DNA of 64,000 bases from a virus (lineage: Duplodnaviria; Caudoviricetes). Location of the stretch: the IMG/VR virus record IMGVR_UViG_2561511107_000003, positions 6,264-70,263 of that record; one strand, given 5' to 3'. Shown here one piece after another: positions 618-64,000 of this stretch; the stretch's first letter is position 1, and each line of letters begins with the position of its first letter. Under the pieces are notes generated by a model that did not search any database, was not told where the DNA came from, and saw nothing but the letters and a program-made list of their open reading frames with translations. Position numbers and translations under genes: made by a program.

Positions 618-1253
618 ATGCAATCGCAGAGTAACCCAACTACCGGCCCCGGCTACTCGGCCGCTGAGCTGCGGACCCGGGAGGTTCAGGCCGGCGACCT
701 GACCGCCGGCATGACCATCCTCTACGAGCTTGGCGCGGGCCTTGGTGTCGAGCCCCTGACCGTGTCACGTGTCCGCCGCGACGGGGGCAGGACCGCCCTG
801 GTCACGTTCGAATTCGTCGACGACGAGACGCCGTTCAACGTCGAGGAGACCGTCACCGTCGTCGGCTGGGATGGCGCGGCGCCGCTGGCCGAGTCGGACT
901 ACTGGCAGGCCCTGGCCGCTGATCTGCGTGCGGCGGCTGACCGGCTGGCCACCCTCGCCGGCACGCCGGCCCCCGAGGTGCGCGCGAGCCTGTACCTGCA
1001 TGTCGGGCCGTTCATGGAGCGGGGTAGCGGGGAACGCCGTCCTGTGGTGGACGCGATCGCTGACGCCCTCAGCGGGACGGCCGCAGAGGTGGGGTCGGGG
1101 GCGTTCTGGGAGCACCGGGCGGATGTCACGGTCGGCGCGTTGGGCGTTACCGCGTGGACCCGGATTCCGGCACCGGAGGACGCGGAGACGGCGGCGCTGC
1201 GGGCTGAGGTGGCCGCGCTGCGCGCCCAGCTCGCCGAGGGCGGTGCCCGGTGA
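618..1253 (+). CDS. Hypothetical phage early protein
   Basis: AAGGAG RBS before ATG 618; coupled to the next gene. Confidence 0.7.
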   Translation: MQSQSNPTTGPGYSAAELRTREVQAGDLTAGMTILYELGAGLGVEPLTVSRVRRDGGRTALVTFEFVDDETPFNVEETVTVVGWDGAAPLAESDYWQALAADLRAAADRLATLAGTPAPEVRASLYLHVGPFMERGSGERRPVVDAIADALSGTAAEVGSGAFWEHRADVTVGALGVTAWTRIPAPEDAETAALRAEVAALRAQLAEGGAR

Positions 1254-1462
1254 GCGCCCCGGCGTGCGACGCCTGCCCGCGCACCGCGCGGTGGCGGATC
1301 CGTCCCGCCTGCTCGTGCCTCCTGCCGGCGGCAGGGGACAGGCAGTACGCCTGCACTGAGCACCTCGGGACGGTGACCGGGATGTGGGGTGAGCACCAGC
1401 GGCGGCACACCGGCCGCGGGGCGTTTGACGCGGTGCGCCTCTCCTGGGCGGTGCCCAAATGA
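1250..1462 (+). CDS. Small Cys-rich (Zn-finger-like) protein
   Basis: CDAC...CSC...CTEH; GTGA overlap. Confidence 0.6.
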   Translation: MSAPACDACPRTARWRIRPACSCLLPAAGDRQYACTEHLGTVTGMWGEHQRRHTGRGAFDAVRLSWAVPK

Positions 1463-1689
1463 GCGCCCCGACCTGGCCCCTCACGGCCGACGCCGCCGAG
1501 ATCACCGTCCTGGACCTGGGGTGTGGACACCTGCCCGGGGAGTCCTGCGACGAGGCGTGCGCCTACTGGCGGGGTGTCGCGGCCGGCGAGTACCCGCCGC
1601 CGGAGGCCTACATGCCGGTGACGCTGCCGCCGCACTGCCCCGAGCTGCTGCCGCTGACCGATCCGGCGCTGCGGGGGGTGGCCTCATGA
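1459..1689 (+). CDS. Hypothetical protein
   Basis: ATGA overlaps on both sides. Confidence 0.6.
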
Positions 1690-51302: not shown

Positions 51303-51349
51303 TGTAAGGCGCCTTGCAATCCACTGCAAGGCGCCTTACACTTTTGGGT
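51303..51349 (+). promoter_or_regulatory. Promoter with a double palindromic operator
   Basis: TTGCAA-17-TACACT; TGTAAGGCGCCTTGCA and its perfect inverse 6 bp apart. Confidence 0.8.
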
Positions 51350-52189
51350 ATGGATGATGCTGACAACGTTCCGCCCGTGTTCCGTTCCCTCGTGGACCGA
51401 CTCGGTCCGCCCGTGCCGGTGGAGGACGCACGATCCCGGTGGGCCGAACTGGTGGCGGCGGCCGAGGCCGGCACGGCCACCCTGATCACCCGCGACGGCC
51501 GGGAGTGGGTCGCACTGGTACCGATGGCCGAGGTGGCCGAGCCGGTCGCCTGGATGCCGATGTGGCCGCTGTCGGAGGCCCGCGCCAAGCTCGGCGACGT
51601 GATCCACGAGAGTCACGCCAGGACTCAGGTCCTCACCCGGCACCGGAAGCCAGTCGCCGCAGTCATCGACGCCACCGTGCTTCTCGACCGGCCAACCCCG
51701 GCGGACCGACTCCCGGCCGAGACGTTGTTGGACGCCGGCCGGCGGATCGTGCTGGAAGGTGACCCCGGCGCCCCGGGCCGGATGGACTTCGACGGAGAGG
51801 TCACCGAGCAGTCGGAGCCGGCGTGCTACACGGCCACGGCCGTGAACCGGGACGGCACGACTGTCGCAGTCGGTGTCGGCCCATCGCTAGGGGAGGCGCT
51901 GCTGCGCCTGGCCGCGCCCACCGAGGGCACGCCGGTCATCTGGTCAGTCATGCGCGGCGAGTCACCGAACGCAGCTGCGGTCGAGCCGCAGATGATCGGT
52001 GTAGACATTCCGTTGCAAGTCCTGGCCTGGGCCGAGGCTCACGGGATGACCGAGGACGACCCGGACGTGTACCTCCTCATCGCCCCGGCCGACGGAGCCC
52101 GCCCGTTCGATGGCGAGTTGGCGACCAGGATGGACGTGCTACCTCCAGAGACGGTGGCGCAGATCGAAGAGGCGATCACCAACGCCTAG
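51350..52189 (+). CDS. Tandem Phd/YefM antitoxin-like domain protein
   Basis: EDARSRWAELV...ITRDGREWVALVP and SEARAKLGDVI...LTRHRKPVAAVI. Confidence 0.75.
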   Translation: MDDADNVPPVFRSLVDRLGPPVPVEDARSRWAELVAAAEAGTATLITRDGREWVALVPMAEVAEPVAWMPMWPLSEARAKLGDVIHESHARTQVLTRHRKPVAAVIDATVLLDRPTPADRLPAETLLDAGRRIVLEGDPGAPGRMDFDGEVTEQSEPACYTATAVNRDGTTVAVGVGPSLGEALLRLAAPTEGTPVIWSVMRGESPNAAAVEPQMIGVDIPLQVLAWAEAHGMTEDDPDVYLLIAPADGARPFDGELATRMDVLPPETVAQIEEAITNA

Positions 52190-52203
52190 TTGGCCAAAGG
52201 AAA

Positions 52204-52233
52204 GACCCCCGGCTCGGCGGCGAGCCGGGGGTC
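52204..52233. terminator. Stem-loop terminator
   Basis: GACCCCCGGCTCG GCGG CGAGCCGGGGGTC. Confidence 0.7.
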
Positions 52234-52423
52234 GCCCGCGCGAAACGGGCAAGCGCGCTCGATGGTGTCCGTTGGACGAACCCACACCTCGGCCAGCTCG
52301 ACCATCGTTGCCATACCCGCCGAGAGGCCGTCAGTGATCATGATGCCTGGAGTTGTTTTTGGTCTGGAAACTACGGGCGGGCCATGCTGACACCGGCCAG
52401 CGTCGGAAGGCGGCAGGTCGGCA

Positions 52424-53098
52424 TCACACACCTCCCAACAGGTCGGCGAGCAGGTCCCGGTGGGCCGGGAAAACGGGGCCGGCGTAAACCTCGGCCAGAT
52501 ACGAGGCGAGCTGGTCGTATGTGTCGCAGGGCACCCACGCGGCACGGCGGGCGTCGTCCTGGCCAGTCACGTCGGGTAGGTGGAGCCAGCCGGACCCCAG
52601 GTCGATCCGCACGGGGGTGGTGACCATCCACGCCTCGTCGGATGCGCGGGGGTCGGGCACGACCCGGGCCGGCAGCGTCGTAACCCACGGGTCGGCGGGG
52701 TTGGCGACCAGCGCGGCACCCTCGGTCAGCTCCCGGAACGCGGCGGCGAGGGCGGTTTCGCCGGGGTCGACGTGCCCGCCGGGCAGCGCCCACCCGAACC
52801 CGTCGCCACGCTCGATCAGCAGCAGACAGCGCGCCCCGTCGATGTCCCTGGCGGTGACGATCGCGTCGGCGGCCTGCGCCTCGCCCCAGTGGCCGAGGCG
52901 GTTACGGCCGTAGCGGATGCCGGTCGGCGGGGCCGGCGCGACCGGCCGCCCGTCAACGACCGCGAAGGGAATCGCTGCTCGGCGCTGTCTTTCGGCCCAG
53001 TCGATGACGGTGGGGTCCATGATCGGGTCGGCCCACGACTTGCCGGCGGCGATGCCGGCCAGGACGGACGGGGCGGTGTAGGTGCGGTCAGTGCTCAC
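52424..53098 (-). CDS. Nudix hydrolase (NUDT9/ADP-ribose pyrophosphatase-like)
   Basis: GRNRLGHWGEAQAADAIV, WALPGGHVDPGE...RELTE, DPRASDEAWM, GQDDARRAAW. Confidence 0.88.
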   Translation of the reverse strand: MSTDRTYTAPSVLAGIAAGKSWADPIMDPTVIDWAERQRRAAIPFAVVDGRPVAPAPPTGIRYGRNRLGHWGEAQAADAIVTARDIDGARCLLLIERGDGFGWALPGGHVDPGETALAAAFRELTEGAALVANPADPWVTTLPARVVPDPRASDEAWMVTTPVRIDLGSGWLHLPDVTGQDDARRAAWVPCDTYDQLASYLAEVYAGPVFPAHRDLLADLLGGV

Positions 53099-53303
53099 GG
53101 CTACCTCCGGTCGGGGCGGTCGGATGGGCGGAATCCGGCATCAGTGATTGGGTTTCGGCATCGCGGGTGGGGCAGTTCTGCGGACAGACGTCCACGGTGG
53201 TGTCGGTGTCGCACACGCACACGGCCGCCGAGGGCTGGTAGCGGACCCGGCGGGGGCGACGGCCGTACGACGCCGCCCCCGCCTGAAAGTCAGCCCGACT
53301 CAT
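53088..53303 (-). CDS. Small Cys-containing protein
   Basis: CVC...CPQNC; coupled ORF. Confidence 0.45.
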   Translation of the reverse strand: MSRADFQAGAASYGRRPRRVRYQPSAAVCVCDTDTTVDVCPQNCPTRDAETQSLMPDSAHPTAPTGGSREH

Positions 53304-53500
53304 CGCTGCCGCCACTCGGGGGAGCTGCCCCGCGAACTCGTCCGCCAGGCCATGCCGTCGCTGGCGGCCTTCACCTGCGGCGTCGCTTTGAGCGCCCGCC
53401 GTGCGTCTTCCAGCCGCTTCTGGTTGGCGGGGGTCGGGGTGTCTTTCGCGTTCTGCTGGGCGTGCAGGAACGCGTCTGCCTTCTGCTTGAATGGGTTCAC
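53300..53500 (-). CDS. Small hypothetical protein
   Basis: GGAGG RBS before GTG. Confidence 0.6.
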   Translation of the reverse strand: MNPFKQKADAFLHAQQNAKDTPTPANQKRLEDARRALKATPQVKAASDGMAWRTSSRGSSPEWRQR

Positions 53501-53631
53501 GGTCGGCCCTCCGTTTGGGTGCGGGTCGACCACCCCTACGGCGCTCGAATCGCCGTAGGAGTGATCCTCTGGTTGGGGATCGGGGCGGGGTGCGGTCGGC
53601 TTGTCCAGGGCGTGACCGCACCCCGCCGGCT

Positions 53632-53766
53632 CTACTTACGTCCGGTGTTGCCGCCGTTGAGGGCGGTGTCGACGGCGGTGGTGCGCTTCGACAGGGGCAG
53701 GTCCGCGGTGGCGCGGATGGTTTGCCCGACCTGCTGCGCCCGGTCGCTGCTGGTGTTTTTCGCCAT
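53632..53766 (-). CDS. Small hypothetical peptide (44 aa)
   Basis: AAGGAG RBS. Confidence 0.55.
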   Translation of the reverse strand: MAKNTSSDRAQQVGQTIRATADLPLSKRTTAVDTALNGGNTGRK

Positions 53767-53849
53767 GTCTGCTCCTTCGTTAGGGGTGGTCGTTCGCGTC
53801 TGCGGCGACCCCGCGCGGGCCGGTTGGTGCACGATCCGGCCCGACGGGC

Positions 53850-54110
53850 TCACGTCGCAGATGAGCGGGTGGGCTGCTGCGCTGGCTCAGGCTTGCCGGC
53901 GCGCCACTGCCGAAAGTTGCGGGCGTACACCCAGCCGTAGGCGGCGCAGGAGATGAGGAATCCCCACTGGCGGGTGTGGACCGCGTAGGCGAGCCACAGG
54001 GTTTGGGCGCCGATCCCGACAGCCCACCCCCACGGGCTGCGGCGGCCGGCGAGGTACAGGCCGGTGACGCCGACGGCGGTGAGCAGCCACGACCATAGTT
54101 GCGGGTTCAC
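53850..54110 (-). CDS. PnuC-like short membrane protein
   Basis: GLYLAGRRSPWGWAVG...LWLAY...NFRQW; three TMs. Confidence 0.7.
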   Translation of the reverse strand: MNPQLWSWLLTAVGVTGLYLAGRRSPWGWAVGIGAQTLWLAYAVHTRQWGFLISCAAYGWVYARNFRQWRAGKPEPAQQPTRSSAT

Positions 54111-54159
54111 GGGCCGGTCCGCGCGGTGCGGGCGAGGTTGTCGTGCGGGTGGACGCGCA

Positions 54160-54360
54160 TTAGGCCGGCTGCTCGTCGCTGGCGGGAAGGGGGGTCAGGC
54201 CGATGACGACGACGTTGCTGAGTCCCTGTGTGGCCGCGATCTGCTGGCTGATTGCAGCGAGATCGTTGGCTGTAGCGATGGGCCGTGTCGGCTGGTAGAT
54301 GCAGTTACCGAAGCCGAAGCCGCTGCCGGTCACGTGGCTGTAGGCGGCGAAGTAGCGCAT
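54160..54360 (-). CDS. Small hypothetical protein, paralog A
   Basis: GGAGG RBS; MRYFAAY...GFGNC. Confidence 0.7.
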   Translation of the reverse strand: MRYFAAYSHVTGSGFGFGNCIYQPTRPIATANDLAAISQQIAATQGLSNVVVIGLTPLPASDEQPA

Positions 54361-54449
54361 GTTGCCCTCCAAGGGGTTGATCCGTTGTCTTTTCTCCGCC
54401 TGCCGCACACAGCTGCGATGGTGAGCAGGCAACCAGCGGTAGGTCAGAT

Positions 54450-54641
54450 CTAGCTTTCGGGCACGTCCTGAACGTTTATGACAATCAAACGGTCGTGGCC
54501 AGACTTGGCGATCTGAGCAGCGGCACGAGCCGGGTCGGTAAGCGGATGAAAGTCGAACTGTCCGACGCAGTTACCAACCCCGACACGGGTTCCGCCCGGC
54601 TCGGACCGCTCGTAGTAGTAGGCGACGAAGTAGTAGCGCAT
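54450..54641 (-). CDS. Small hypothetical protein, paralog B
   Basis: GGAGGA RBS; MRYYFVAY...GVGNC. Confidence 0.7.
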   Translation of the reverse strand: MRYYFVAYYYERSEPGGTRVGVGNCVGQFDFHPLTDPARAAAQIAKSGHDRLIVINVQDVPES

Positions 54642-54660
54642 GGGTCCTCCGGATGCCCGG

Positions 54661-55353
54661 CTAACGCTGACCGTCGGCAAACAGTCGGGTAGCCTGTTTG
54701 ATCAACTCGTCCTGCGCAGCGAACAGCCACATCAGCGCTCTGGCGTCCGCTCCGTCGCCGTGGTACCGCTCCTGCGGATACCAGTCACCCAGGTCCACAC
54801 CGGCCGTCTCTTCCAGCTCGGACAGCGGCGGTACCTTCGCCAGGACATGGTCCGGCAGTTTGCGCATGATGGTGGCCAGGTCGTACGCCTGCCCGGAAAG
54901 CCGCCGGGCAGCCTGCAGGGCTGCACGACGTTGATCAGCGAGCGTGAGTAGCTGCGCCTGCCAAAACCCGTCAGGGGTGCCCCGCAGCTGCTCGTACGCG
55001 TCAACGGCCCGCTGCCGGGCCTGCTGGTACTCGCCCACCAGTGGGGCAATGTCCCTGAGGAGAGCGACGACCTGCCGGTTGTGGCGGGCCACCCGCCACA
55101 GCATGTAAGCGGCGTGCTCTTCGGCGTAGGCGGACCGGCGTGCCTCGGACACGGCCTGCCCGATGTCGGAGCTTTGGGGGTGACTGTCTTCGGCGGCTTT
55201 CCAGGCGTCCTTGACGCTGCCGGGGATCTTTGGCTCCGGTTCGTCGCCGGTGAACGGTTTGAACTGCCACCTGGTGCCGGTGTTGTGCTGCTTGGCGGTA
55301 ATGAGGTGAGGATGATGCCAGGCGGGGACTTTGTTGTTGCCTACGTTGGCCAC
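54661..55353 (-). CDS. Hypothetical helical protein
   Basis: 230 aa; GGAGG RBS. Confidence 0.7.
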   Translation of the reverse strand: MANVGNNKVPAWHHPHLITAKQHNTGTRWQFKPFTGDEPEPKIPGSVKDAWKAAEDSHPQSSDIGQAVSEARRSAYAEEHAAYMLWRVARHNRQVVALLRDIAPLVGEYQQARQRAVDAYEQLRGTPDGFWQAQLLTLADQRRAALQAARRLSGQAYDLATIMRKLPDHVLAKVPPLSELEETAGVDLGDWYPQERYHGDGADARALMWLFAAQDELIKQATRLFADGQR

Positions 55354-55380
55354 TACTGCCTCCGGGTTGCGATCTCTTGG

Positions 55381-55536
55381 TTAGCGGTTGCGGTCCTGGG
55401 CGGCGATCATCCGCGCGGTGCGGAGGGACGCAGCGGTCTGAACACCGGCCGCCTTGTCGCGCTGCTCCCGGGCCTGTTCGCGCAGGGTTTCGGTGACCGA
55501 CGGGATCGCGCTATCGGACGCGGTCCTGTTGTTCAT
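55381..55536 (-). CDS. Small hypothetical protein
   Basis: AAGGAG RBS. Confidence 0.55.
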   Translation of the reverse strand: MNNRTASDSAIPSVTETLREQAREQRDKAAGVQTAASLRTARMIAAQDRNR

Positions 55537-55623
55537 GTGCGCTCCTTGCTGTCGGGTGCTGGTCTGTGTAGACCCTGCGTGGGTCCGGGCCACTCGACCG
55601 GACCCCACAGGCTCGACGACAGG

Positions 55624-55788
55624 TCAGAGGCCGTAGCCGAGCGAGGCGTTGATGGCGGCCCGACGCGAGTTGGCGCGACCCGGACGGATCCGCACGGTCT
55701 GCCGTTCCCCGTCGGCACCGCGGATGGTGCGGGTCGGGCGGATCTCGGTGGTCGTGTGCCCGATGGTGACGGAAGCGTTCGTGAACAT
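55624..55788 (-). CDS. Small hypothetical protein
   Basis: GGGAGA RBS. Confidence 0.55.
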   Translation of the reverse strand: MFTNASVTIGHTTTEIRPTRTIRGADGERQTVRIRPGRANSRRAAINASLGYGL

Positions 55789-55868
55789 GAGGGTTCTCCC
55801 TGGATTTTGGAGGTGCCTTCGGTGGCGGGCTCCCGACACGGCATGGGGGTACGGGGCCACCCGATCTG

Positions 55869-55979
55869 CTACTTGCTGCTGCTGTTCTTGCGCAGGTCGT
55901 CGCGGATCCGCTCCACCTCGACGGCGTTACGGTTGTCCTTGTCCCGCTGCGCGGCCAGCGAGCGCACCTCGCCGGCCAT
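55869..55979 (-). CDS. Small peptide (36 aa)
   Basis: TGATG coupling to the upstream ORF. Confidence 0.45.
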   Translation of the reverse strand: MAGEVRSLAAQRDKDNRNAVEVERIRDDLRKNSSSK

Positions 55980-56350
55980 CACTCGACCCCGGCCCCGGCG
56001 TGGGGTAGGGCGGTGGGGGCAAGCCAAGACCCGAGCAGCAGCACCGCGTTACCGGCCTTGCCGCCGTCGAGGTGGGCGACACGAGAACCCACCTGCACCG
56101 ATACCTGCGGCACCGGCCGGTCTGCGTTCCGGTCGAATGTGACGGTCACCTTGACTCGCACACCGGCGGGGTCGGTGACGGCCGTCGACGTGGCACACGG
56201 GCCGTCGTTGTGGCGGCGGTGGCACCACAGCGGGTGTGTGCCGTGGTCGGCCGGCAGTTCGTCGAGGGTGGTGGGCTTCAAATCGTCGTAGCTGGGCGAG
56301 TCGTTGCGGGTCTCGTGGCCTGCGCGGACCCGAGCCCACCAGGCGTTCAC
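55979..56350 (-). CDS. Hypothetical protein (HPLWC..H motif)
   Basis: Coupled ORF. Confidence 0.6.
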   Translation of the reverse strand: MNAWWARVRAGHETRNDSPSYDDLKPTTLDELPADHGTHPLWCHRRHNDGPCATSTAVTDPAGVRVKVTVTFDRNADRPVPQVSVQVGSRVAHLDGGKAGNAVLLLGSWLAPTALPHAGAGVE

Positions 56351-56541
56351 CGGACTGGCCTTGTCGTGTACGCGCCGCGGTCGTAGCCGTACGACACGGG
56401 CGACTGGTAGGGGCCGTTCACCGCGGCCGGCACTTCGACCTTCCGGCCATCCGCGTACGTGACGCGCAGCTGGTCATTGCGGCGACGCACCCGGTGGATC
56501 ACCGCACTCGGCGTATTGCTGGCGGCCTGCGGCGACATCAC
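56347..56541 (-). CDS. Small hypothetical protein
   Basis: Coupled ORF. Confidence 0.55.
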   Translation of the reverse strand: MMSPQAASNTPSAVIHRVRRRNDQLRVTYADGRKVEVPAAVNGPYQSPVSYGYDRGAYTTRPVR

Positions 56542-57056
56542 GCACCCCGCCTCGAGGTGTTGATACGGTCGGCGAACTGCTGCGGCAGCATGAGCTGGGC
56601 GCGGTCACGGGCGGCGGCATGGGTGTCCCGCAGCTCGCGGAAGGTGCGCGGCTGGGTCGGCTGCGACAGCGACTCAACCAGCTCGGTGACCTTGGCGGTG
56701 TCCTCCGGCGACTCGAACCGGTCCAGTAGGTCGTTAAGGTAGTCGGCCTGCGCCTGACTGGCGGTGTCACGACGGCGCTGCGCCTCGTGCAGGTCACGGG
56801 TCAACGCGTCGCGGATCGCGTCACGAACCCCGTCGGGGTGAACGTTGTTGAGCCCGCCTTCGCGGATAACCGCGTAGATGGTGCGGTAGACGTCCCGGTC
56901 GGCGACGGTGAAGGACAGGCCGTGTTCCCGGTTGCCGCCGGTGCGGGTCATGGTGGTGATGGAGTAGCCGCCGTCTACGGTGATTTGGGCCGTAAGCTCG
57001 TACCGGCCGTAGGGCCTGGTAACGGGATCTGGGCGCGCGGCAGTACCCTGCTGCAT
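56538..57056 (-). CDS. Hypothetical protein, first of the small-ORF operon
   Basis: AAGGGAA RBS. Confidence 0.65.
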   Translation of the reverse strand: MQQGTAARPDPVTRPYGRYELTAQITVDGGYSITTMTRTGGNREHGLSFTVADRDVYRTIYAVIREGGLNNVHPDGVRDAIRDALTRDLHEAQRRRDTASQAQADYLNDLLDRFESPEDTAKVTELVESLSQPTQPRTFRELRDTHAAARDRAQLMLPQQFADRINTSRRGA

Positions 57057-57139
57057 AGCGGTTCCCTTCGGGGAGTCCGTTGGGGCCCCTGCACCGGTCG
57101 TCCGCCAAGACTTGAGCCGGTGTGGGGGTTTTTCCTTGC

Positions 57140-57190
57140 AGCACTAACCTTGCCAAACTGGCATGTGAAAGTCAAGGGTGCACATGCCAA
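57140..57190 (-). promoter_or_regulatory. Promoter with TGGCATGTG inverted repeat (putative GntR operator)
   Basis: TTGACT-17-CAAGGT on the minus strand; TGGCATGTG...CACATGCCA. Confidence 0.6.
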
Positions 57191-57928
57191 TTAGGCGGAG
57201 AAGTTGTACACCACCTCGTACGCCTCCGTGTCAAGCACCATCCGCGTCACGTCCACGCACCGCCCCTTAGACCGCGCAAACCGCGTGATCTCCAGAACCA
57301 TCGACTTACTCCGAGGAAGCCGCAGCAGTTCGGCCTCATCCGGAAGTGGAGGGCGGCCCACGATCCGCTCCGTGAACTCATCCGGCCCCCAACCCTGATC
57401 GGCCAGCCTGCCAAACGTCCCACCCGGGCCGGTGTCGTGGTAGACGATCGCGGTCCCCCGGGCCAGGTCCACAGGGATGTGCGACTCGGCGAGTTGCACA
57501 CGTCGGCCGTCGACCTCGAACACTCGGAACCGGCGCACGACCGGCGAGTCGGCGTCGATGCCGAACGCTTCCGCCACGAACGCGGGGGCCGGCACCTCAT
57601 CAACGCGGGCGTCAACGTCGCGCCACCGCTGCTCGGTGTCCTTGTCCTGAATCGCCTTGCCACTCCCCCACTGCTTCTTCGTCACGCGTCCCGGCGACTC
57701 ACGGACGATGCGGGTGAACGGCTCACGGACGGTACTGGCAGCCCCCTGTCGGGAGATGATGGCACCTTCGGCGCGCAGTGTGGCTAGCGCCTGCTGGACA
57801 GCGCCCCGCCCCATCCCGTGCTCGGCCATCATCTCGGTGATGGACGGCAGTGTGTCTCCGGGTCGCAGCTTGCCCGAGCGAATGTCGTCTCTGAGCTGGG
57901 CCGCAAGGCTGGCGGCACTCCGTGGCAT
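57191..57928 (-). CDS. GntR/HutC-family regulator (KorSA-like)
   Basis: IRSGKLRPGDTLPS...VQQALATLRAEG, plus a UTRA domain. Confidence 0.92.
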   Translation of the reverse strand: MPRSAASLAAQLRDDIRSGKLRPGDTLPSITEMMAEHGMGRGAVQQALATLRAEGAIISRQGAASTVREPFTRIVRESPGRVTKKQWGSGKAIQDKDTEQRWRDVDARVDEVPAPAFVAEAFGIDADSPVVRRFRVFEVDGRRVQLAESHIPVDLARGTAIVYHDTGPGGTFGRLADQGWGPDEFTERIVGRPPLPDEAELLRLPRSKSMVLEITRFARSKGRCVDVTRMVLDTEAYEVVYNFSA

Positions 57929-58089
57929 GTCAAACCCCTAACTGTCTTATGACAGCAGGCTACGCGCATGTAAGGGCCGCCTTGTCCGGACGGTACGGAC
58001 AAGCTTTGCCGCGCCGCCAGCTTGCACGTCCTTCGCCATGTAAGCACTTACAGCTTGACCTGCATGTGACAGTAAGGAATGATCAGGTC

Positions 58090-58338
58090 ATGGAGCTAAG
58101 CGAAATCATGCTGCTCGTCGAAGCCCACAAGAAGGCTCGCAGTGGCGACGCAAAGAAGATCCGGCGACGCGCCGGACTGACCATGGCCCACGTAGCCGCC
58201 GTCGTTGGCGTCAGCGAATCAACCGTCAGCCGATGGGAGGGCGGTTCCCGCAAACCACGAGGCGAACACGCACTCAGGTGGGCCGCCCTGCTCAACGAGC
58301 TGGAGCGCGCGCAGGCCGAGCCGGTCGCAGCCGCCTGA
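58090..58338 (+). CDS. XRE HTH protein
   Basis: GLTMAHVAAVVGVSESTVSRWEGG; TTGACC-17-AATGAT leaderless promoter. Confidence 0.85.
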   Translation: MELSEIMLLVEAHKKARSGDAKKIRRRAGLTMAHVAAVVGVSESTVSRWEGGSRKPRGEHALRWAALLNELERAQAEPVAAA

Positions 58339-58342
58339 ACCA

Positions 58343-59563
58343 ATGACCGACCCCCGACCGAACGGGCGTTGGTTTCGGGACATCTACCGCGATGCCGTGT
58401 GGGAGTCCGAGGAACTGACGGCCCAAGAGAAGGCCGTCGCCGAGACGTACGCACGGCACGCACGCGACGAACACGACGACAAGAGCGCAACTGCTGACCT
58501 CGCGTGGACGACCTACCCGCGACTCATGGCCAAGGCGGGCATCGGGCGGCGAGCGAATGTGAGCACCGCCGTCGCGAGCCTGGTGAGGAAGGGGTGGCTG
58601 ACCGTGGTCCGTGAGGCGAGTCGACGGCCGACCCTCTATCGCCTAACGATTCCCGTCGGTGGTTTCGATGGTGGAACTACCAGCCAGGCGAGCCGTAGTT
58701 CCGATGACGGTACTACGGTAGTTCCGAGACCAGCAGCTGGTAGTTCCACTTCCGCCGCCGGTAGTTCCGATGGCGGAACGCAACCATTAGGACCATTAGA
58801 AAATCAACCACTAGCCTCTCTCTCTGACGCTCGCACATCAGTGCCCGTACCTAGCGTGCTCAACGACGACCGAGAGAGAGACGAGAAGTCTTCAACCAAA
58901 GACCCCAACCCCATCGGGCCGCTACAGCGATTCGTCATCAAGCGCGGCGCACCTCAACACCTCGCCACCCAGGTAGTCGAGTTCATCGAAGCCGCCAACG
59001 CCATCGACGGATTTGGCTGGTGGATCACCGCCAGCGGCAACGGCACCCTCGCCGCGCAGGTAGCCACCGCCCTCGACGCGTTGGCCGCACCAATCGGAGG
59101 CGACAACCAGGACGACTGTTCGACGTGCGGTGACACGGTGCTATCAGTTCCCGGACACGCCGACTCACGGGGCGATGAGGGGGTGAGTTACGGGGTAACT
59201 GGTTCCGCTGCGCCTACCCAGCACCAACCCCCTTCCTCCCCCACCGTCGAACCTGACGCCTCGCCGCGCTCCGACAGGCAGGAGAAGACGAGAGCAGACC
59301 TCGCCATCATGGCTACCGCCACCCGCCTCGCCGACCCCTACCAAGGCGACATGACCGTCATCGAGTCGCGACGCCTGGTAAGCCACGTCGTCACCGTGCT
59401 CGCCAAGGGATGGTCGGAGCAGGTCGTAGCGGACGCACTGGCCACCGACGTCGCCGGCCTCGACTCGGTTGCCGCTGGTCTGATCGGGCGGATGATGGAA
59501 CTTGCGGCCACCCCTGTCCAACCGGGCCGCGACGAAACGTTGCTGCCGAGATGCATCGCCTAG
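58343..59563 (+). CDS. Second replication-initiator-like HTH protein with internal iterons
   Basis: LAWTTYPRLMAKAG...LVRKGWL...PTLYRLTIP winged helix, then a repeat linker. Confidence 0.65.
   Translation: MTDPRPNGRWFRDIYRDAVWESEELTAQEKAVAETYARHARDEHDDKSATADLAWTTYPRLMAKAGIGRRANVSTAVASLVRKGWLTVVREASRRPTLYRLTIPVGGFDGGTTSQASRSSDDGTTVVPRPAAGSSTSAAGSSDGGTQPLGPLENQPLASLSDARTSVPVPSVLNDDRERDEKSSTKDPNPIGPLQRFVIKRGAPQHLATQVVEFIEAANAIDGFGWWITASGNGTLAAQVATALDALAAPIGGDNQDDCSTCGDTVLSVPGHADSRGDEGVSYGVTGSAAPTQHQPPSSPTVEPDASPRSDRQEKTRADLAIMATATRLADPYQGDMTVIESRRLVSHVVTVLAKGWSEQVVADALATDVAGLDSVAAGLIGRMMELAATPVQPGRDETLLPRCIA
58658..58808. repeat. GTAGTTCC(GATGGYGGAACTAC) iteron-like repeats plus ACCATTAG x2, putative origin 2
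   Basis: Five copies or half-copies, followed by an AT-richer patch. Confidence 0.65.
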
Positions 59564-59590
59564 CCGTCGGCGTACCGCTACCATGCCGTC

Positions 59591-60100
59591 ATGGCCGACG
59601 GACCGGACCCTGGATCCGAACACGGGGCAGCCTTCGCCCGCCTCCTGCGGGTGCAACGGGCCAAACGCGGCCTACGCCAACAAGACGTCGCCGACGCCTC
59701 CGGTGTCTCCCTGCACACCATCATGCGATGGGAAACCGGCCAAAGCCGGCCACCCCAGCCCGCACAAGTCCGCGCCATCTGCCACGCCCTCGGCATCAAC
59801 CCTCTCGAGGTGGCCGTTGCCCTCGGCTACCTCGGCGAGGACGAAGCCCCGCCCAGTACAGACTTCGCTCGGCCCACCATCGCAATCAAAGTCGGCGAGC
59901 ACCACCACGGACCTTCCCGCGGCGAAGAAGGCTTCGCCTACCGGTCCCTCGCGCGCCGCAGACTCGCCGATGCCCTCGGCATCGAAAAGCCTCCGACGCT
60001 CAGCCCCGAGGAGCAGCAGAAGCTGCGTGAGGCTGAGGCACGCGCCGAGCGCGACGCAGACCGGATCTACGGAGACCACGCCGGCCAGGCTGTGGCGTGA
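59591..60100 (+). CDS. XRE HTH protein, putative antitoxin
   Basis: GLRQQDVADASGVSLHTIMRWETG; GTGA-coupled to the PIN gene. Confidence 0.8.
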   Translation: MADGPDPGSEHGAAFARLLRVQRAKRGLRQQDVADASGVSLHTIMRWETGQSRPPQPAQVRAICHALGINPLEVAVALGYLGEDEAPPSTDFARPTIAIKVGEHHHGPSRGEEGFAYRSLARRRLADALGIEKPPTLSPEEQQKLREAEARAERDADRIYGDHAGQAVA

Positions 60101-60456
60101 GACCCCGCATCCTCGACACGTCGGCGATCATCGCCCTGTTCGACGCCTACCCGCCGGTGTTCGACCTGATAGCGAGTGCGGAGGTCAACGAGGCGACCAT
60201 CGTTCTGCCGGCAGCTGCCGTCGCCGAAGCGAACCGGAAGATCCGCGGATCGTTCGGCGTGTGGGAGCCGGTCCTCTTAACTGCCGGGCTGACGGTTATG
60301 CCGCTCGATCCTCATGTCGCTATCGAGATTCACGACCTGGTCGGCGACGTGGCTACTCGGCACACCGTGTACGAGGCGCGGCTGTTGCGTGGTGTGGTGG
60401 TGACCTGCGACCCGGGCGTGTATCGGGGGCACACGGTTCCGCTGCTGGTCGTCTGA
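60097..60456 (+). CDS. vapC: PIN-domain (VapC-like) protein
   Basis: ILDTSAIIAL, AVAEA, VVTCD. Confidence 0.75.
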   Translation: MRPRILDTSAIIALFDAYPPVFDLIASAEVNEATIVLPAAAVAEANRKIRGSFGVWEPVLLTAGLTVMPLDPHVAIEIHDLVGDVATRHTVYEARLLRGVVVTCDPGVYRGHTVPLLVV

Positions 60457-61701: not shown

Positions 61702-62418
61702 ATGATCAGCGTCGTCGGTGTCGCGTCCCGCCGGGGCACCCGCGACCACAACGCGGACGCCGGCCACGCCTACCGAGGCGACGACGGCACCGTCGTCGCG
61801 GCGGTCATCGACGGCACCGGCAACTCAGCCGAGCTGGCCGAGCTGGCCGACGCGATGGCGATCGTCGTCGCCCGCGTCGGGTACCGGCGCGGCGGTCTCG
61901 CCGCTCTCATCACCGCCTCCGACCTGATCCACGAGGCCCACGACGCCGCTGCCGTCACGGTCCGGGTGGATCCCGACGGCGGGGTCCACACCCACTGGAT
62001 CGGCGACTGCCGCGCCTGGTGGTGGACCGGTGCCGAACTGCGTCAGCTCACCACCGACCACACCATGGGCCAACTCCTGCGCGTCTCCGGCGGTGAGTCC
62101 GCCGCCCGGGTCGCCGCCACCCACGACCACTGGCTGCGCCTGGGTATCAGCGGTGCCACCCCCGCCACCGTCGCCGAGGTGAGCGGGCTCGACGTCGACA
62201 GCACGACGCTGGGCGTCGGCCAGCTGGTCCTGCTCACCTCCGACGGGGTCCACGACCAGCTCGACCAGGACACCATGCTCGAGCTGGTCGTGGCCCACGC
62301 CGCCGTTCCGCAGAGCCTGGCGGACGCACTGGTCGCCACCGCGAGGCCGGATCACCGGGGCTACCGGGATGACGCCACCGCGGTCGTCGTGGCGATGACC
62401 GCGGTGGCGCACGAATGA
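61702..62418 (+). CDS. PP2C/PPM-family Ser/Thr protein phosphatase
   Basis: R..NAD, VIDGTG, IGDCR, LTTDHT, LTSDGVHD, DDATAVV. Confidence 0.9.
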   Translation: MISVVGVASRRGTRDHNADAGHAYRGDDGTVVAAVIDGTGNSAELAELADAMAIVVARVGYRRGGLAALITASDLIHEAHDAAAVTVRVDPDGGVHTHWIGDCRAWWWTGAELRQLTTDHTMGQLLRVSGGESAARVAATHDHWLRLGISGATPATVAEVSGLDVDSTTLGVGQLVLLTSDGVHDQLDQDTMLELVVAHAAVPQSLADALVATARPDHRGYRDDATAVVVAMTAVAHE

Positions 62419-62426
62419 TCCGGTCC

Positions 62427-62462
62427 CAACGACGGGTGCGCCGGCGCACCCGTCGTTGGTTT
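62427..62462 (+). terminator. Intrinsic terminator
   Basis: CCAACGACGGGTGCG CCGG CGCACCCGTCGTTGG TTT. Confidence 0.75.
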
Positions 62463-62507
62463 CGGTGCGAGCGTGGACACCGAACCGCACGCCGCGCTAT
62501 CGGTCAC

Positions 62508-62596
62508 GCACGCCCCGCCCACGCGGGGGTGATCCGTCGCTAAGCACTCGGTGGGTGCGGACGCAGGGTCGACTTGTCCCCGCCACGCGGGGTAGA
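62508..62596 (+). CRISPR. Type I-E-like mini-array A (repeat, 36-nt spacer, degenerate repeat)
   Basis: GCACG CCCCGC CCAC GCGGGG GTGATCCG (29 nt) and CTTGT CCCCGC CAC GCGGGG. Confidence 0.7.
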
Positions 62597-62640
62597 CGAC
62601 AGCGCCCCGCCTGGCCTCACGGCCAGGCGGGGCGCTGTCG
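62597..62640. terminator. Bidirectional terminator (GGCC-TCAC-GGCC family, copy 2)
   Basis: Perfect 20-bp stem with TCAC loop. Confidence 0.8.
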
Positions 62641-62651
62641 CGTGTGCGGGG

Positions 62652-63053
62652 TCAGCGGCGGCCGGAGCGGATCTGATAGAGCCGGGCCGGCGTCACGCCG
62701 GCGGCTGCAGCAATGTCGTCTCGCCGCAGCTCAGTCCGCTGCATTGCCGTCCGCACCAGCTCGTCGCGGCGGGCGGTCAGGCGGCCGATCTCGCTGGTCA
62801 CCTCCTCCAGCTCCACCAGTATCCGGGCGGCGGCCGTGGCGACGGCTCCGACACTGTACGACGCGTCAACTGCACGGGTGATCACGCCGACGCCGGCCGG
62901 AGTGAGGGTGCGGGTCGCGATGTCCCACAGCTCCGGGTCGTCGCGGATCTCATCCACATGCACCCGCACCGTGTCGACGGCAGCAGCGTGGGTGTCTATG
63001 CCGTGGTGGTCGGCGAGGGTCCGGGCGAGATCGTCAATGCTGGTTCTGGTCAC
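62652..63053 (-). CDS. Protein with C-terminal HTH
   Basis: GGAGGA RBS; RDDIAAAAGVTPARLYQIR. Confidence 0.8.
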   Translation of the reverse strand: MTRTSIDDLARTLADHHGIDTHAAAVDTVRVHVDEIRDDPELWDIATRTLTPAGVGVITRAVDASYSVGAVATAAARILVELEEVTSEIGRLTARRDELVRTAMQRTELRRDDIAAAAGVTPARLYQIRSGRR

Positions 63054-63081
63054 CGCTTCCTCCTGTGGCTTGGATACCATG

Positions 63082-63122
63082 AGCCTATAGCCTGCTATAG
63101 CTATATGTCAAGCACGCTATAG
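63082..63122 (-). promoter_or_regulatory. Promoter overlaid with CTATAG palindromes
   Basis: TTGACA-18-TAGGCT on the minus strand; CTATAG x3 plus CTATAT. Confidence 0.7.
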
Positions 63123-63205
63123 AACAGCGATGGTGTGGGCCTGCCACAATGACCCGCCCCCTGCGGGGCCTGACAGCCGAGACGCTTGGGGGTACGCTCC
63201 GTTCA

Positions 63206-63278
63206 TTGGTCCCCGCGCAGGCGGGGATGACCCACTGTCGCTTCGCGACATGCTCCCCACGCATGTGGGGTTAGGGAC
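63206..63278 (+). CRISPR. Type I-E-like mini-array B (repeat, 15-nt hairpin spacer, variant repeat)
   Basis: TTGGT CCCCGC GCAG GCGGGG ATGACCCA and ATGCT CCCCAC GCAT GTGGGG. Confidence 0.75.
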
Positions 63279-63285
63279 CACGCAA

Positions 63286-63329
63286 ACGACGCCCGCCCGG
63301 CCGTGAGGCCAGGCGGGGCGCTTCGTCGT
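63286..63329. terminator. Bidirectional terminator (GGCC-TCAC-GGCC family, copy 3, inverted)
   Basis: GCCCGGCC GTGA GGCCAGGC stem. Confidence 0.75.
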
Positions 63330-63337
63330 GCCTGGCG

Positions 63338-64000
63338 TCAGCGAGGGACTCCGTGCACGAGGTAGTTCAAAGGCACCACCACCCAGGTGCCGGGCTCGTC
63401 GACTCGCTCTACCTCCAACTCGCCAGCATCGTTGAGCCGTGCGTCTGGTCGCAGCGCCTGCACCTCGTCGAGGTTGTCGCCGGTCCACATGACCGCCTGC
63501 TGTGTTGACCTTGGTCGGCCTGGTTTGCGTTGCCAGCCGGCGGCGAACGCGTCGATGCTGCTCCGGGTGTATACGGGGCCGGCGGCCAGCCGGGCGACCG
63601 GGTCCGGGAACGCCTCGTTCTCCCGGGCGAGTTGCTCGACTCGCTGCCGTGACACGTTGAGGATTCGGGCGATCTCGGCGTTGCCGACGAGGCTCATCGG
63701 GTGTGGTCGGGAGATCTCCCGTTCGTGGTCCTCGGCGGTGATCACGCGTAGGGCGGTGACCTCGGGTGCGCTGCCGATTGCCTGGCTGTGCGCGGTGCGG
63801 GCCGCGCGGGCGGCCGTGTCGGCGGCCTGGCGGACGGTGGGCGCTTCGATGGTCATCTCCAGGCGTACCCGGTCGACGCCGGTGTCGACGATGATGCCGT
63901 AGCCGGGTAGGACGCGGGTGATCTCGGCGAGTTGGTCGTCGGTGGGCTGTGCGCTCCAACGGCGAATGGTTACGGCGGCGTGCCACTGTTGGGGTGTCAT
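63338..64000 (-). CDS. AlpA/excisionase-like HTH protein (possible antitoxin); start lies at the window edge
   Basis: LVGNAEIARILNVSRQRVEQL...FPDPVARLAAGPVY. Confidence 0.75.
   Translation of the reverse strand: MTPQQWHAAVTIRRWSAQPTDDQLAEITRVLPGYGIIVDTGVDRVRLEMTIEAPTVRQAADTAARAARTAHSQAIGSAPEVTALRVITAEDHEREISRPHPMSLVGNAEIARILNVSRQRVEQLARENEAFPDPVARLAAGPVYTRSSIDAFAAGWQRKPGRPRSTQQAVMWTGDNLDEVQALRPDARLNDAGELEVERVDEPGTWVVVPLNYLVHGVPR

Follow-up and report, generated by a model that had tools for sequence, protein, structure and literature searches.

Can a provirus without cas genes turn a fragment of a CRISPR (short palindromic repeats, clustered and regularly interspaced) array against the immunity of its host? 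The question is raised by two repeat-like hairpins, B1 and B2, that lie only 15 nucleotides (nt) apart near the end of a viral DNA stretch of 64,000 nt, here called the window, which comprises bases 6264–70263 of the 70,263-base IMG/VR provirus record IMGVR_UViG_2561511107_000003 and ends where the record ends. We propose, at about an even chance, that this unit is an RNA anti-CRISPR of the Racr/Cracr kind, which would load Cas6e, Cas5 and about three Cas7 proteins of the host type I-E system into a truncated complex incapable of interference. An earlier note on the window had described a type I-E repeat, a 15-nt self-folding insert and a second repeat, and this arrangement is present as described (63206–63278, plus strand). 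Its view of the unit as a cas-less type I-E repeat mimic on a mobile element was also borne out: canonical type I-E arrays adjoin cas genes, whereas neither Cas6e (PF08798) nor Cse1 (PF09481) was found in the whole 70-kb record. We favor the proposal in part because the record lacks these proteins and is that of a tailed-phage provirus (portal, head protease, major head and tape measure genes) with a plasmid-like right part (NUDIX, GntR/UTRA, replication-initiator-like, XRE and PIN proteins).

The anatomy of the unit can be read directly (Table 1). B1 has all the marks of the canonical type I-E repeat (about 29 nt, a hairpin and a GGGGAT(G/A)nnCC tail), with the stem CCCCGC/GCGGGG, the loop GCAG and a final 8 nt, ATGACCCA, that are the predicted 5' handle. 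B2 has the hairpin only, its tail being degenerate. Canonical spacers are about 32–33 nt long at a period of about 61, and here the spacer is 15 nt and the stem-to-stem period 44 nt, versus 61 in real arrays. Cas6e cuts 3' of the repeat hairpin, the processing rule from which the mature RNA of Table 1 is predicted. The 73-nt unit folds into three hairpins at −38.0 kcal/mol (z −3.58, equaled by 1 of 200 shuffles), the 16-nt insert hairpin TGTCGC-TTC-GCGACA has −6.7 kcal/mol (z −3.72, again equaled by 1 of 200) and the predicted 44-nt RNA −17.6 kcal/mol (z −2.81). Hairpins of the pattern CCCCRC-N3-7-GYGGGG occur four times in the 64 kb, all inside 62513–63270, against an expectation of 1.18 (4 of 100 shuffles reach four). 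The 25-nt core of B1 is present in a single copy in the window at up to three mismatches, and 100 shuffles yielded no match.

With its flanks the unit may constitute a small RNA gene of the mobile element (63170–63319) composed of promoter, repeat, 15-nt pseudo-spacer, pseudo-repeat and terminator, a proposition that we regard as evenly balanced. A third, very degenerate repeat stem had been placed about one spacer length upstream of B1 in the earlier note. That sequence exists at 63153–63167 but is not a repeat, as it is located upstream of the −35-like hexamer and two of the three homologous cassettes (L059 and L124) lack it. The 30 nt that would have been its spacer are read here as the putative promoter, because the stem lies 5' of the −35/−10 pair and is missing from those two cassettes.

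By its sequence, B1 reads as a real type I-E repeat. Its 24-nt core (up to two mismatches) was found in 23 of 401 genomes evenly drawn from one actinobacterial class, that of genome G675 (22 of 400 without G775), and most of these matches sit in arrays of period 61. The core was found in none of 401 genomes in each of the class and phylum samples of a metagenome-assembled genome (MAG) unrelated to the record. Bases 63210–63233 of B1 are identical at 23 of 24 positions to real array repeats, including the GGGGATGACCC tail beyond the stem, and arrays on Streptomyces plasmids match B1 as well. The closest comparison is with genomes G816, G950 and G1109, which together with G1041 belong to a 201-genome sample of the family of G1011. 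Of 22 genomes, G1011 is the best DNA relative, at 70% along some 600 nt of the NUDIX gene. B1 differs from the array repeats of G816, G950 and G1109 by one loop base. Cse1 was present in all five of the tested genomes with B1-like array repeats, these three included, and twice in two of the five. That B1 stands one loop base from the array repeats of Cse1-bearing genomes is one ground for the anti-CRISPR reading. Type I-E systems have been reported in 49 of 75 Salinispora strains, some of which have two type I-E arrays of different origin (Wietz et al. 2014).

The CCCCAC/GTGGGG stem of B2 had been taken for a local compensatory change that would point to selection on RNA structure. This interpretation does not hold, as the same 20-mer, TGCTCCCCACGCATGTGGGG, is present in seven other viral contigs, in four of which two copies lie 61 nt apart, and on a plasmid of Streptomyces xanthophaeus 21 nt of B2, shared with the last repeat there, end a mini-array of the form repeat-32-repeat-32-repeat. 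In genome G1041, arrays of the CCCCAC type adjoin a divergent Cse1. B2 thus belongs to a separate, widespread repeat variant, and the unit therefore combines the repeats of two type I-E variants.

Such combinations recur. Many viral short-spacer arrays alternate CCCCGC and CCCCAC repeats, and proviruses L003 and L017 carry four-repeat arrays in which both types abut. In these hybrid arrays (L003 6232–6387, minus strand; L017 7337–7492, plus strand) two CCCCGC-type repeats are followed by two of the CCCCAC type, and hairpin two joins hairpin three directly, with no spacer (GCGGGGTTCCCCAC). The S. xanthophaeus plasmid array (NZ_CP108622; L008, 880–1310) has three repeats, the last of CCCCAC type, separated by 32-nt spacers, and is flanked on both sides by copies of a long palindrome, GACTTTTGTCCGCGGACAAAAGTC.

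In a targeted scan, three further contigs of IMG/VR proved to carry the unit (L006/L002/L018, L059 and L124), and all four cassettes have the same layout: a TACnnT hexamer 7 bases 5' of the first repeat, the repeat, 15 nt, the pseudo-repeat and a GC-rich hairpin. The cassette occurs in two gene contexts, beside a divergent gene for a 142-residue helix-turn-helix (HTH) protein in the window and L018 and beside a different divergent gene, of 200 residues, in L059 and L124. The link between HTH gene and cassette is therefore not constant. The recurrence of everything from −10-like hexamer to terminator in four proviruses and two contexts is another reason for our reading. The hexamer itself is TACGCT in the window and TACCCT in L018, and both L059 and L124 have TACAAT. 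TACnnT is thus kept, and the 19 nt between hexamer and first repeat differ at seven positions between the window and L059.

Within the 70-nt core the four cassettes vary at four sites only, namely the loops of B1 and B2 and insert positions 9 and 14, and the pseudo-spacer can be written CTGTCGCT(T/G)CGCG(A/G)C, with nucleotides 1–8 invariant. Position 9 is the loop of the insert hairpin and position 14 changes a U-A pair to U.G, both in L059 and L124. That this variation is structure-neutral, three loop sites plus one U-A to U.G change, also counts in favor of our reading. All 80 pairing cells in the homologs are paired and 19 of 20 pairs are invariant. Covariation in homologs had been expected in the earlier note, and none was found. 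The variation is compatible with the structure and shows no covariation.

The 44-nt period of the unit is no oddity. Viral contigs were scanned for pairs of I-E-like hairpins at a distance below 57 nt (29 periods allowed), which gave at least 118 stretches. After an orientation filter there remained at least 90 short I-E-like units in at least 65 viral loci (L029–L144), with at least 77 spacer families. Among the matches listed, 4 families had period 43, 3 had 44, 22 had 49, 20 had 50 and 7 had 55, the other periods having 1–4 each. The 55 class was dropped, being mostly convergent inverted pairs (L043, L072 and L132) at the edge of the scan range; counts at the canonical 60–62 from the same scan are by-catch and give no frequency. 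Without the 55 class, 49 of the 70 families among the matches listed fall on four of the 29 allowed periods, 43/44 and 49/50. Spacer lengths in the same set peak at 14–15 and 20–21 nt, and the 15 nt of the unit lie on a lattice of 14/15, 20/21 and 26 nt.

Six bases are the step of one Cas7 in Cascade. The short periods, which descend in six-base steps below 61, match this Cas7 repeat, and the lattice argues for units built to assemble Cascades without two or three Cas7 subunits. We favor the anti-CRISPR reading also because the 44-nt period falls on this lattice and because 14–15-nt units occur inside multi-unit arrays beside those of 20–21 nt, as in L134, where the periods are 50, 43 and 49. 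Many of the viral short-spacer units stand in arrays of two to four units, with CCCCGC and CCCCAC repeats mixed. Eight different viral contigs (L084, L089, L094, L112, L115, L129, L134 and L137) have in common a family of 14-nt pseudo-spacers, GCTTG.TACTT..AGT, which suggests a single conserved target. Pseudo-spacers that pair with themselves are no general trait of the 13–15-nt class: self-pairing is clear in the family of our unit and in members L094 and L137 of one other family, weak in L048, L085, L115 and L134 (20–33 of 500 shuffles fold as well) and was not seen in L009, L035, L084, L089, L112 and L113, nor in L129 of the L094/L137 family.

How would such a unit act? The host Cas6e would cut the transcript 3' of both hairpins, and the resulting 44-nt CRISPR RNA (crRNA) look-alike would take up Cas6e, Cas5e and about three Cas7 in place of six. 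The truncated complex would be unable to trigger Cas3 interference, and competition with real crRNAs for Cas proteins would lower immunity against the element, a sequestration of the Racr type. In the manner of a Cracr, the 15 nt may also direct the complex to a DNA site, where it would act as a repressor. That the unit is transcribed, processed and assembled into a complex, and that it affects immunity, we infer from the sequence features and precedents given here.

The precedents differ in how closely they resemble the unit. Racrs, each a solitary repeat, capture Cas6f and Cas7f, and two of them, RacrIE1 and RacrIE2, inhibit a type I-E system (Camara-Wilpert et al. 2023, PMC10651486). Like a Racr, the unit is a repeat mimic on a prophage without cas genes, it directly follows a promoter (here putative, TACnnT, and read from sequence only), and it is proposed to act by sequestering Cas6 and Cas7 within an aberrant complex. 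The label Racr-like of the earlier note holds to this extent, as a cas-less repeat mimic with a promoter-like hexamer upstream. It does not hold for the architecture, since a Racr has a single repeat and neither spacer nor second repeat, whereas the unit, with two repeats around its 15-nt insert, would yield a complete crRNA-like RNA with 5' handle and 3' hairpin.

Cracrs are viral units of pseudo-repeats and short pseudo-spacers (Liu et al., bioRxiv 10.1101/2024.10.29.618823). In that report a type I-E Cracr array of a Salmonella prophage, with pseudo-spacers of 24 and 21 nt, showed Cas-dependent maturation, less casA mRNA and competition with crRNAs, and viral type I-F units with pseudo-spacers of 17–21 nt gave complexes with fewer Csy3. 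Type I-E prophage examples thus exist, and our unit shares with them its place on a mobile element outside any CRISPR–Cas locus, the order pseudo-repeat, pseudo-spacer of less than canonical length, pseudo-repeat, and the mixing of repeat variants of one type in one array; the short guide is predicted here, too, to give fewer backbone subunits. The unit differs in its 15-nt pseudo-spacer (24 and 21 nt in the tested type I-E array, 17–21 nt in viral type I-F) and in being a single unit rather than an array. By the authors' own criterion, units without at least nine matches proximal to the protospacer-adjacent motif (PAM) to host CreR or CreA were put aside as "likely Racrs", and for our unit no such match was found in the related genomes searched, whether with a host CreR or with a cas promoter. 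In the 5' region of cse1 in related genomes its contiguous match is 8 bases for the window and 11 for L124, in a common codon string. We consider the Cracr or crRNA-like class, whose members compete for Cas proteins and are also able to guide repression, to be the closer match, because the unit would give a complete crRNA-like molecule.

CreR and CreA are crRNA-like regulators of the host that lie inside cas loci and pair with the cas promoter (bioRxiv 10.1101/2023.03.10.532045). The unit shares their degenerate mini-array architecture; unlike them it is on a mobile element, and no pairing partner was found in the related genomes. In E. coli type I-E, 14-nt spacers gave Cascade with fewer Cas7, which supported primed adaptation and no interference, and spacers of more than 20 nt interfered (Kuznedelov 2016, PMC5159557). 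These results bear out the earlier view that a 15-nt spacer is too short for interference. The E. coli crRNAs were engineered and still primed, whereas the unit is natural, sits on a mobile element and has two repeat variants. That the published Cracr, Racr and 14-nt-spacer Cascade results agree with it is a further ground for the anti-CRISPR reading.

A last ground is that a related-family genome has its own short regulatory unit by the cas operon. In G1011, arrays flank cas3-cse1-cse2-cas7-cas5-cas6e-cas1-cas2, and because a short unit of period 49 lies by this operon, the host side of such regulatory circuits appears to exist in this group. The CreR-like unit is at the leader end of the type I-E array (L180, G1011:C1:3968400-3982000, about 1228–1310, minus strand) and consists of a CCCCAT/(C)TTGGGG pseudo-repeat and a 20-nt pseudo-spacer, ATGCGGACGATAGTTACAAC, followed by the first true repeat. 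The pseudo-spacer matches ATGCGAACGATAG (1456–1468, plus strand) at 12 of 13 bases, with the mismatch at position 6, directly 3' of a TAGAAT upstream of the cas operon. Among eight type I-E loci, a clear short-period unit of this kind was found in G1011 only, and its pseudo-spacer has no resemblance to our 15-mer.

Several observations weigh against an anti-CRISPR function. The reading is drawn from sequence, and the type I-E system that it presumes in the hosts of the four proviruses was seen in related genomes. A consensus promoter scan of 62300–63500 was empty, leaving a by-eye reading; CTGACA-17-TACGCT was missed because the −10 rule of the scan needs four of six matches. Cover by RNA-library contigs cannot prove transcription or processing: among three small runs from one organism, with a relative about 92% identical, the unit was covered in one, by a contig spanning 62652 to 63268 (B1, the 15 nt and most of B2), and two contigs from two studies end at 63201/63202, directly 3' of the −10-like hexamer, ends that are no proof of transcription either. 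The unit is rare, with none in JGI metagenome contigs, none in the 201 related-family genomes (up to three mismatches) and only the three other IMG/VR contigs. There were no double (compensatory) changes in the four cassettes, and these are near-identical copies whose conservation may reflect recent ancestry or transfer rather than selection. Finally, the unit is dispensable, because L003/L019, whose neighbor protein is 94% identical, lost it when some 135 bp were deleted between the promoter region and mid-B2.

Much of this would suit a decayed two-repeat mini-array, once like those with which proviruses oppose rival viruses, that lost 17 nt of spacer, or arose by recombination of two repeat types, and is now inert. 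We hold this, the main rival of our reading, to be a possible but rather unlikely origin. Precisely such a loss is seen in L009 (7712–7761, minus strand), where an unrelated 15-nt spacer with a 44-nt period was made by a 17-nt deletion within a spacer that is homologous and full length in L010 and L011; decay can therefore yield the same length, a point that also counts against the anti-CRISPR proposal. The abutting repeat types of the hybrid arrays in the related proviruses L003 and L017, the loss in L019, the lack of any such hairpin at four of the seven loci with the neighbor gene, the narrow distribution and the failure to find either target or covariation all fit an inert remnant. Decay does not readily account for a whole cassette, TACnnT hexamer and terminator included, being kept in two gene contexts, for four of four variable core sites being structure-neutral, or for the six-base lattice described above, which random loss would not give.

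A strict Cracr, in which the 15 nt guide a truncated Cascade to bind a host site without cutting and shut down the cas operon, is unlikely. The candidate for this site is cse1, within its 5' coding region. Read as codons, the 15-mer is L-S-L-R-D/G in preferred codons, and a conserved 5' motif of cse1, ELSLR (DELSLR), is written GAG|CTGTCGCTGCG; a GAG PAM followed by 11 contiguous bases lies 57–78 nt into cse1 in G1011 (L180, plus strand, 4851) and G950 (L159), at the same protein motif. These 11 bases hold only for the L124 variant, the window variant (T at position 9) reaching 8, and a motif-anchored cse1-like pattern matches 22 of 201 genomes, with 11 contiguous bases as the best. Note that partial PAM-proximal pairing suffices for type I-E CreR and Cracr, that nucleotides 1–8 are the invariant part of the pseudo-spacer, and that CasPR, a protein, provides a precedent for silencing from within cas coding regions. 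The 15-mer is, however, a common codon string: GAG plus the 15-mer (up to one mismatch) occurs in 176 of 201 genomes (175 of 200 without G1254), about fivefold more than the reversed control, and none of 30 fetched matches and none of four exact 18-mers lay in cse1. No seed-type target of the 15-mer was found in the 70-kb record and no second site in the window (up to two mismatches), and the pseudo-spacer is unlike that of the single host CreR-like unit found. We regard cse1 as a weak lead.

More elaborate, and decidedly improbable in our view, is a chimeric mimic of two co-resident type I-E variants, in which a CCCCGC-type handle, a CCCCAC-type hairpin and an ELSLR(D)-codon guide would park a three-Cas7 mini-Cascade inside cse1; the operon would be silenced within its coding region rather than at its promoter, and the insert hairpin would restrain a promiscuous guide until it is loaded.

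Virus-borne mini-CRISPR arrays reportedly serve in inter-virus conflict (Medvedeva 2019 and Faure 2019). A working mini-CRISPR of this sort, a real guide with which the host Cas3 would destroy a competing phage or plasmid, is very unlikely here. Like such arrays, which have one to two spacers, the unit is cas-less, lies in a provirus and ends in a degenerate repeat, and the adjacent mini-array A has a full-length spacer. Those arrays, however, are said to carry full-length spacers that match rival viruses, whereas 15 nt is below the length that gives interference in E. coli type I-E in the E. coli results cited above, and no protospacer was found: the 15-mer matches only itself in the window, and both the stretch before B1 and the mini-array A spacer gave chance-level matches only in 50,697 phage records.

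Chance resemblance of GC-rich terminator hairpins to repeats is scarcely credible, for although CCCC/GGGG hairpins abound in high-GC DNA and Rfam gave no family at gathering score (relaxed E-values gave only a sub-threshold CRISPR-DR28 on the other strand, which scored 22.2 bits where the cut-off is 35), the B1 core with its tail equals real array repeats at all but one base, shuffles never reproduce it and B2 shares its 21 nt with the plasmid array.

The repeat-mimic principle has been known since 2023, and the RNA anti-CRISPR that we propose is a further example and no new principle. RNA anti-CRISPRs (Racr 2023, Cracr 2024–2026) have been tested chiefly in Proteobacteria, and the unit is an actinomycete mobile-element candidate, cleanly bounded by a putative promoter and a terminator, available in four natural variants and, with 15 nt, in the shortest guide class so far. 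If the reading is true, the unit would be a compact natural off-switch for type I-E in actinomycetes, which are important antibiotic producers, and would allow a test of the minimum number of Cas7 in Cascade. The six-base lattice and the CreR-like unit of a related host genome reach beyond the unit itself.

Table 1 Features of the cassette and of its surroundings in the window.
Feature	Position	Strand	Basis
−35-like hexamer CTGACA (5/6 of TTGACA), 17 nt upstream of the −10-like hexamer	63170..63175	+	By-eye reading
−10-like hexamer TACGCT (TAnnnT), 7 nt upstream of B1	63193..63198	+	By eye and homologs
Repeat B1, near-consensus type I-E, TTGGTCCCCGCGCAGGCGGGGATGACCCA	63206..63234	+	Direct reading
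Pseudo-spacer, 15 nt, CTGTCGCTTCGCGAC; self-pairs using A63250	63235..63249	+	Direct reading, fold
Pseudo-repeat B2, CCCCAC/GTGGGG variant, ATGCTCCCCACGCATGTGGGGTTAGGGAC, degenerate 3' end TTAGGGAC	63250..63278	+	Direct reading
Predicted mature 44-nt RNA: 8-nt handle, 15 nt, 21-nt hairpin	63227..63270	+	Inferred, type I-E processing rule
GC-rich terminator-like hairpin closing the cassette	63291..63319	+	Kept in 4/4 cassettes
Neighbor gene, 142-residue protein with C-terminal HTH, divergent from the cassette	62652..63080	−	phrog_686, E 4e-5
CTATAG repeats between HTH gene and cassette	63085–63090, 63095–63100, 63117–63122		Direct reading
Phd/YefM-domain protein	51314–52189		Plasmid-like set
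NUDIX	52424–53098		Plasmid-like set
GntR/UTRA	57191–57928		Plasmid-like set
Replication-initiator-like protein	58205–59563		Plasmid-like set
XRE and PIN pair	59591–60456		Plasmid-like set

The neighboring HTH gene gives an indication of the host. Because homologs of its product carry the source names Salinispora vitiensis, Micromonospora inyonensis and M. haikouensis, the host family is probably Micromonosporaceae. A TTGACA lies ahead of the gene on its own strand (63106–63111), and TATAGCGCGCTA-like repeats are kept ahead of it in more distant homologs. A further locus from the first viral scan, L005, was rejected as spurious, the match being confined to the C-terminus of a 728-residue protein, and a search of genome contigs with the neighbor protein gave a single poor match, in an unrelated MAG.

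Mini-array A (62508–62600, plus strand), with a period of 65, is made up of one G-type repeat, 36 nt of spacer and a pseudo-repeat whose loop has 3 nt. It sits between two terminator hairpins, 3' of a PP2C-like gene, and is followed at 62597–62640 by a relative of the hairpin that closes the cassette. The terminator-like hairpins at 62601–62644 and 63279–63322 are 75–84% alike in both orientations and flank the HTH gene and the cassette. Mini-array A is identical in proviruses L016 and L017, and the first 17 nt of its spacer also occur in a hybrid-array spacer of L003 and L017. The 23-nt core of the spacer was found only in other copies of mini-array A, and no protospacer was found for it. The L002 contig has an extra 2 kb between mini-array A and the HTH gene.

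The plasmid-like genes occupy 51314–60456 of the window. This set may resemble integrative conjugative elements of actinomycetes, for example pSAM2 (pif, korSA), and the right third of the provirus record may be a second element.

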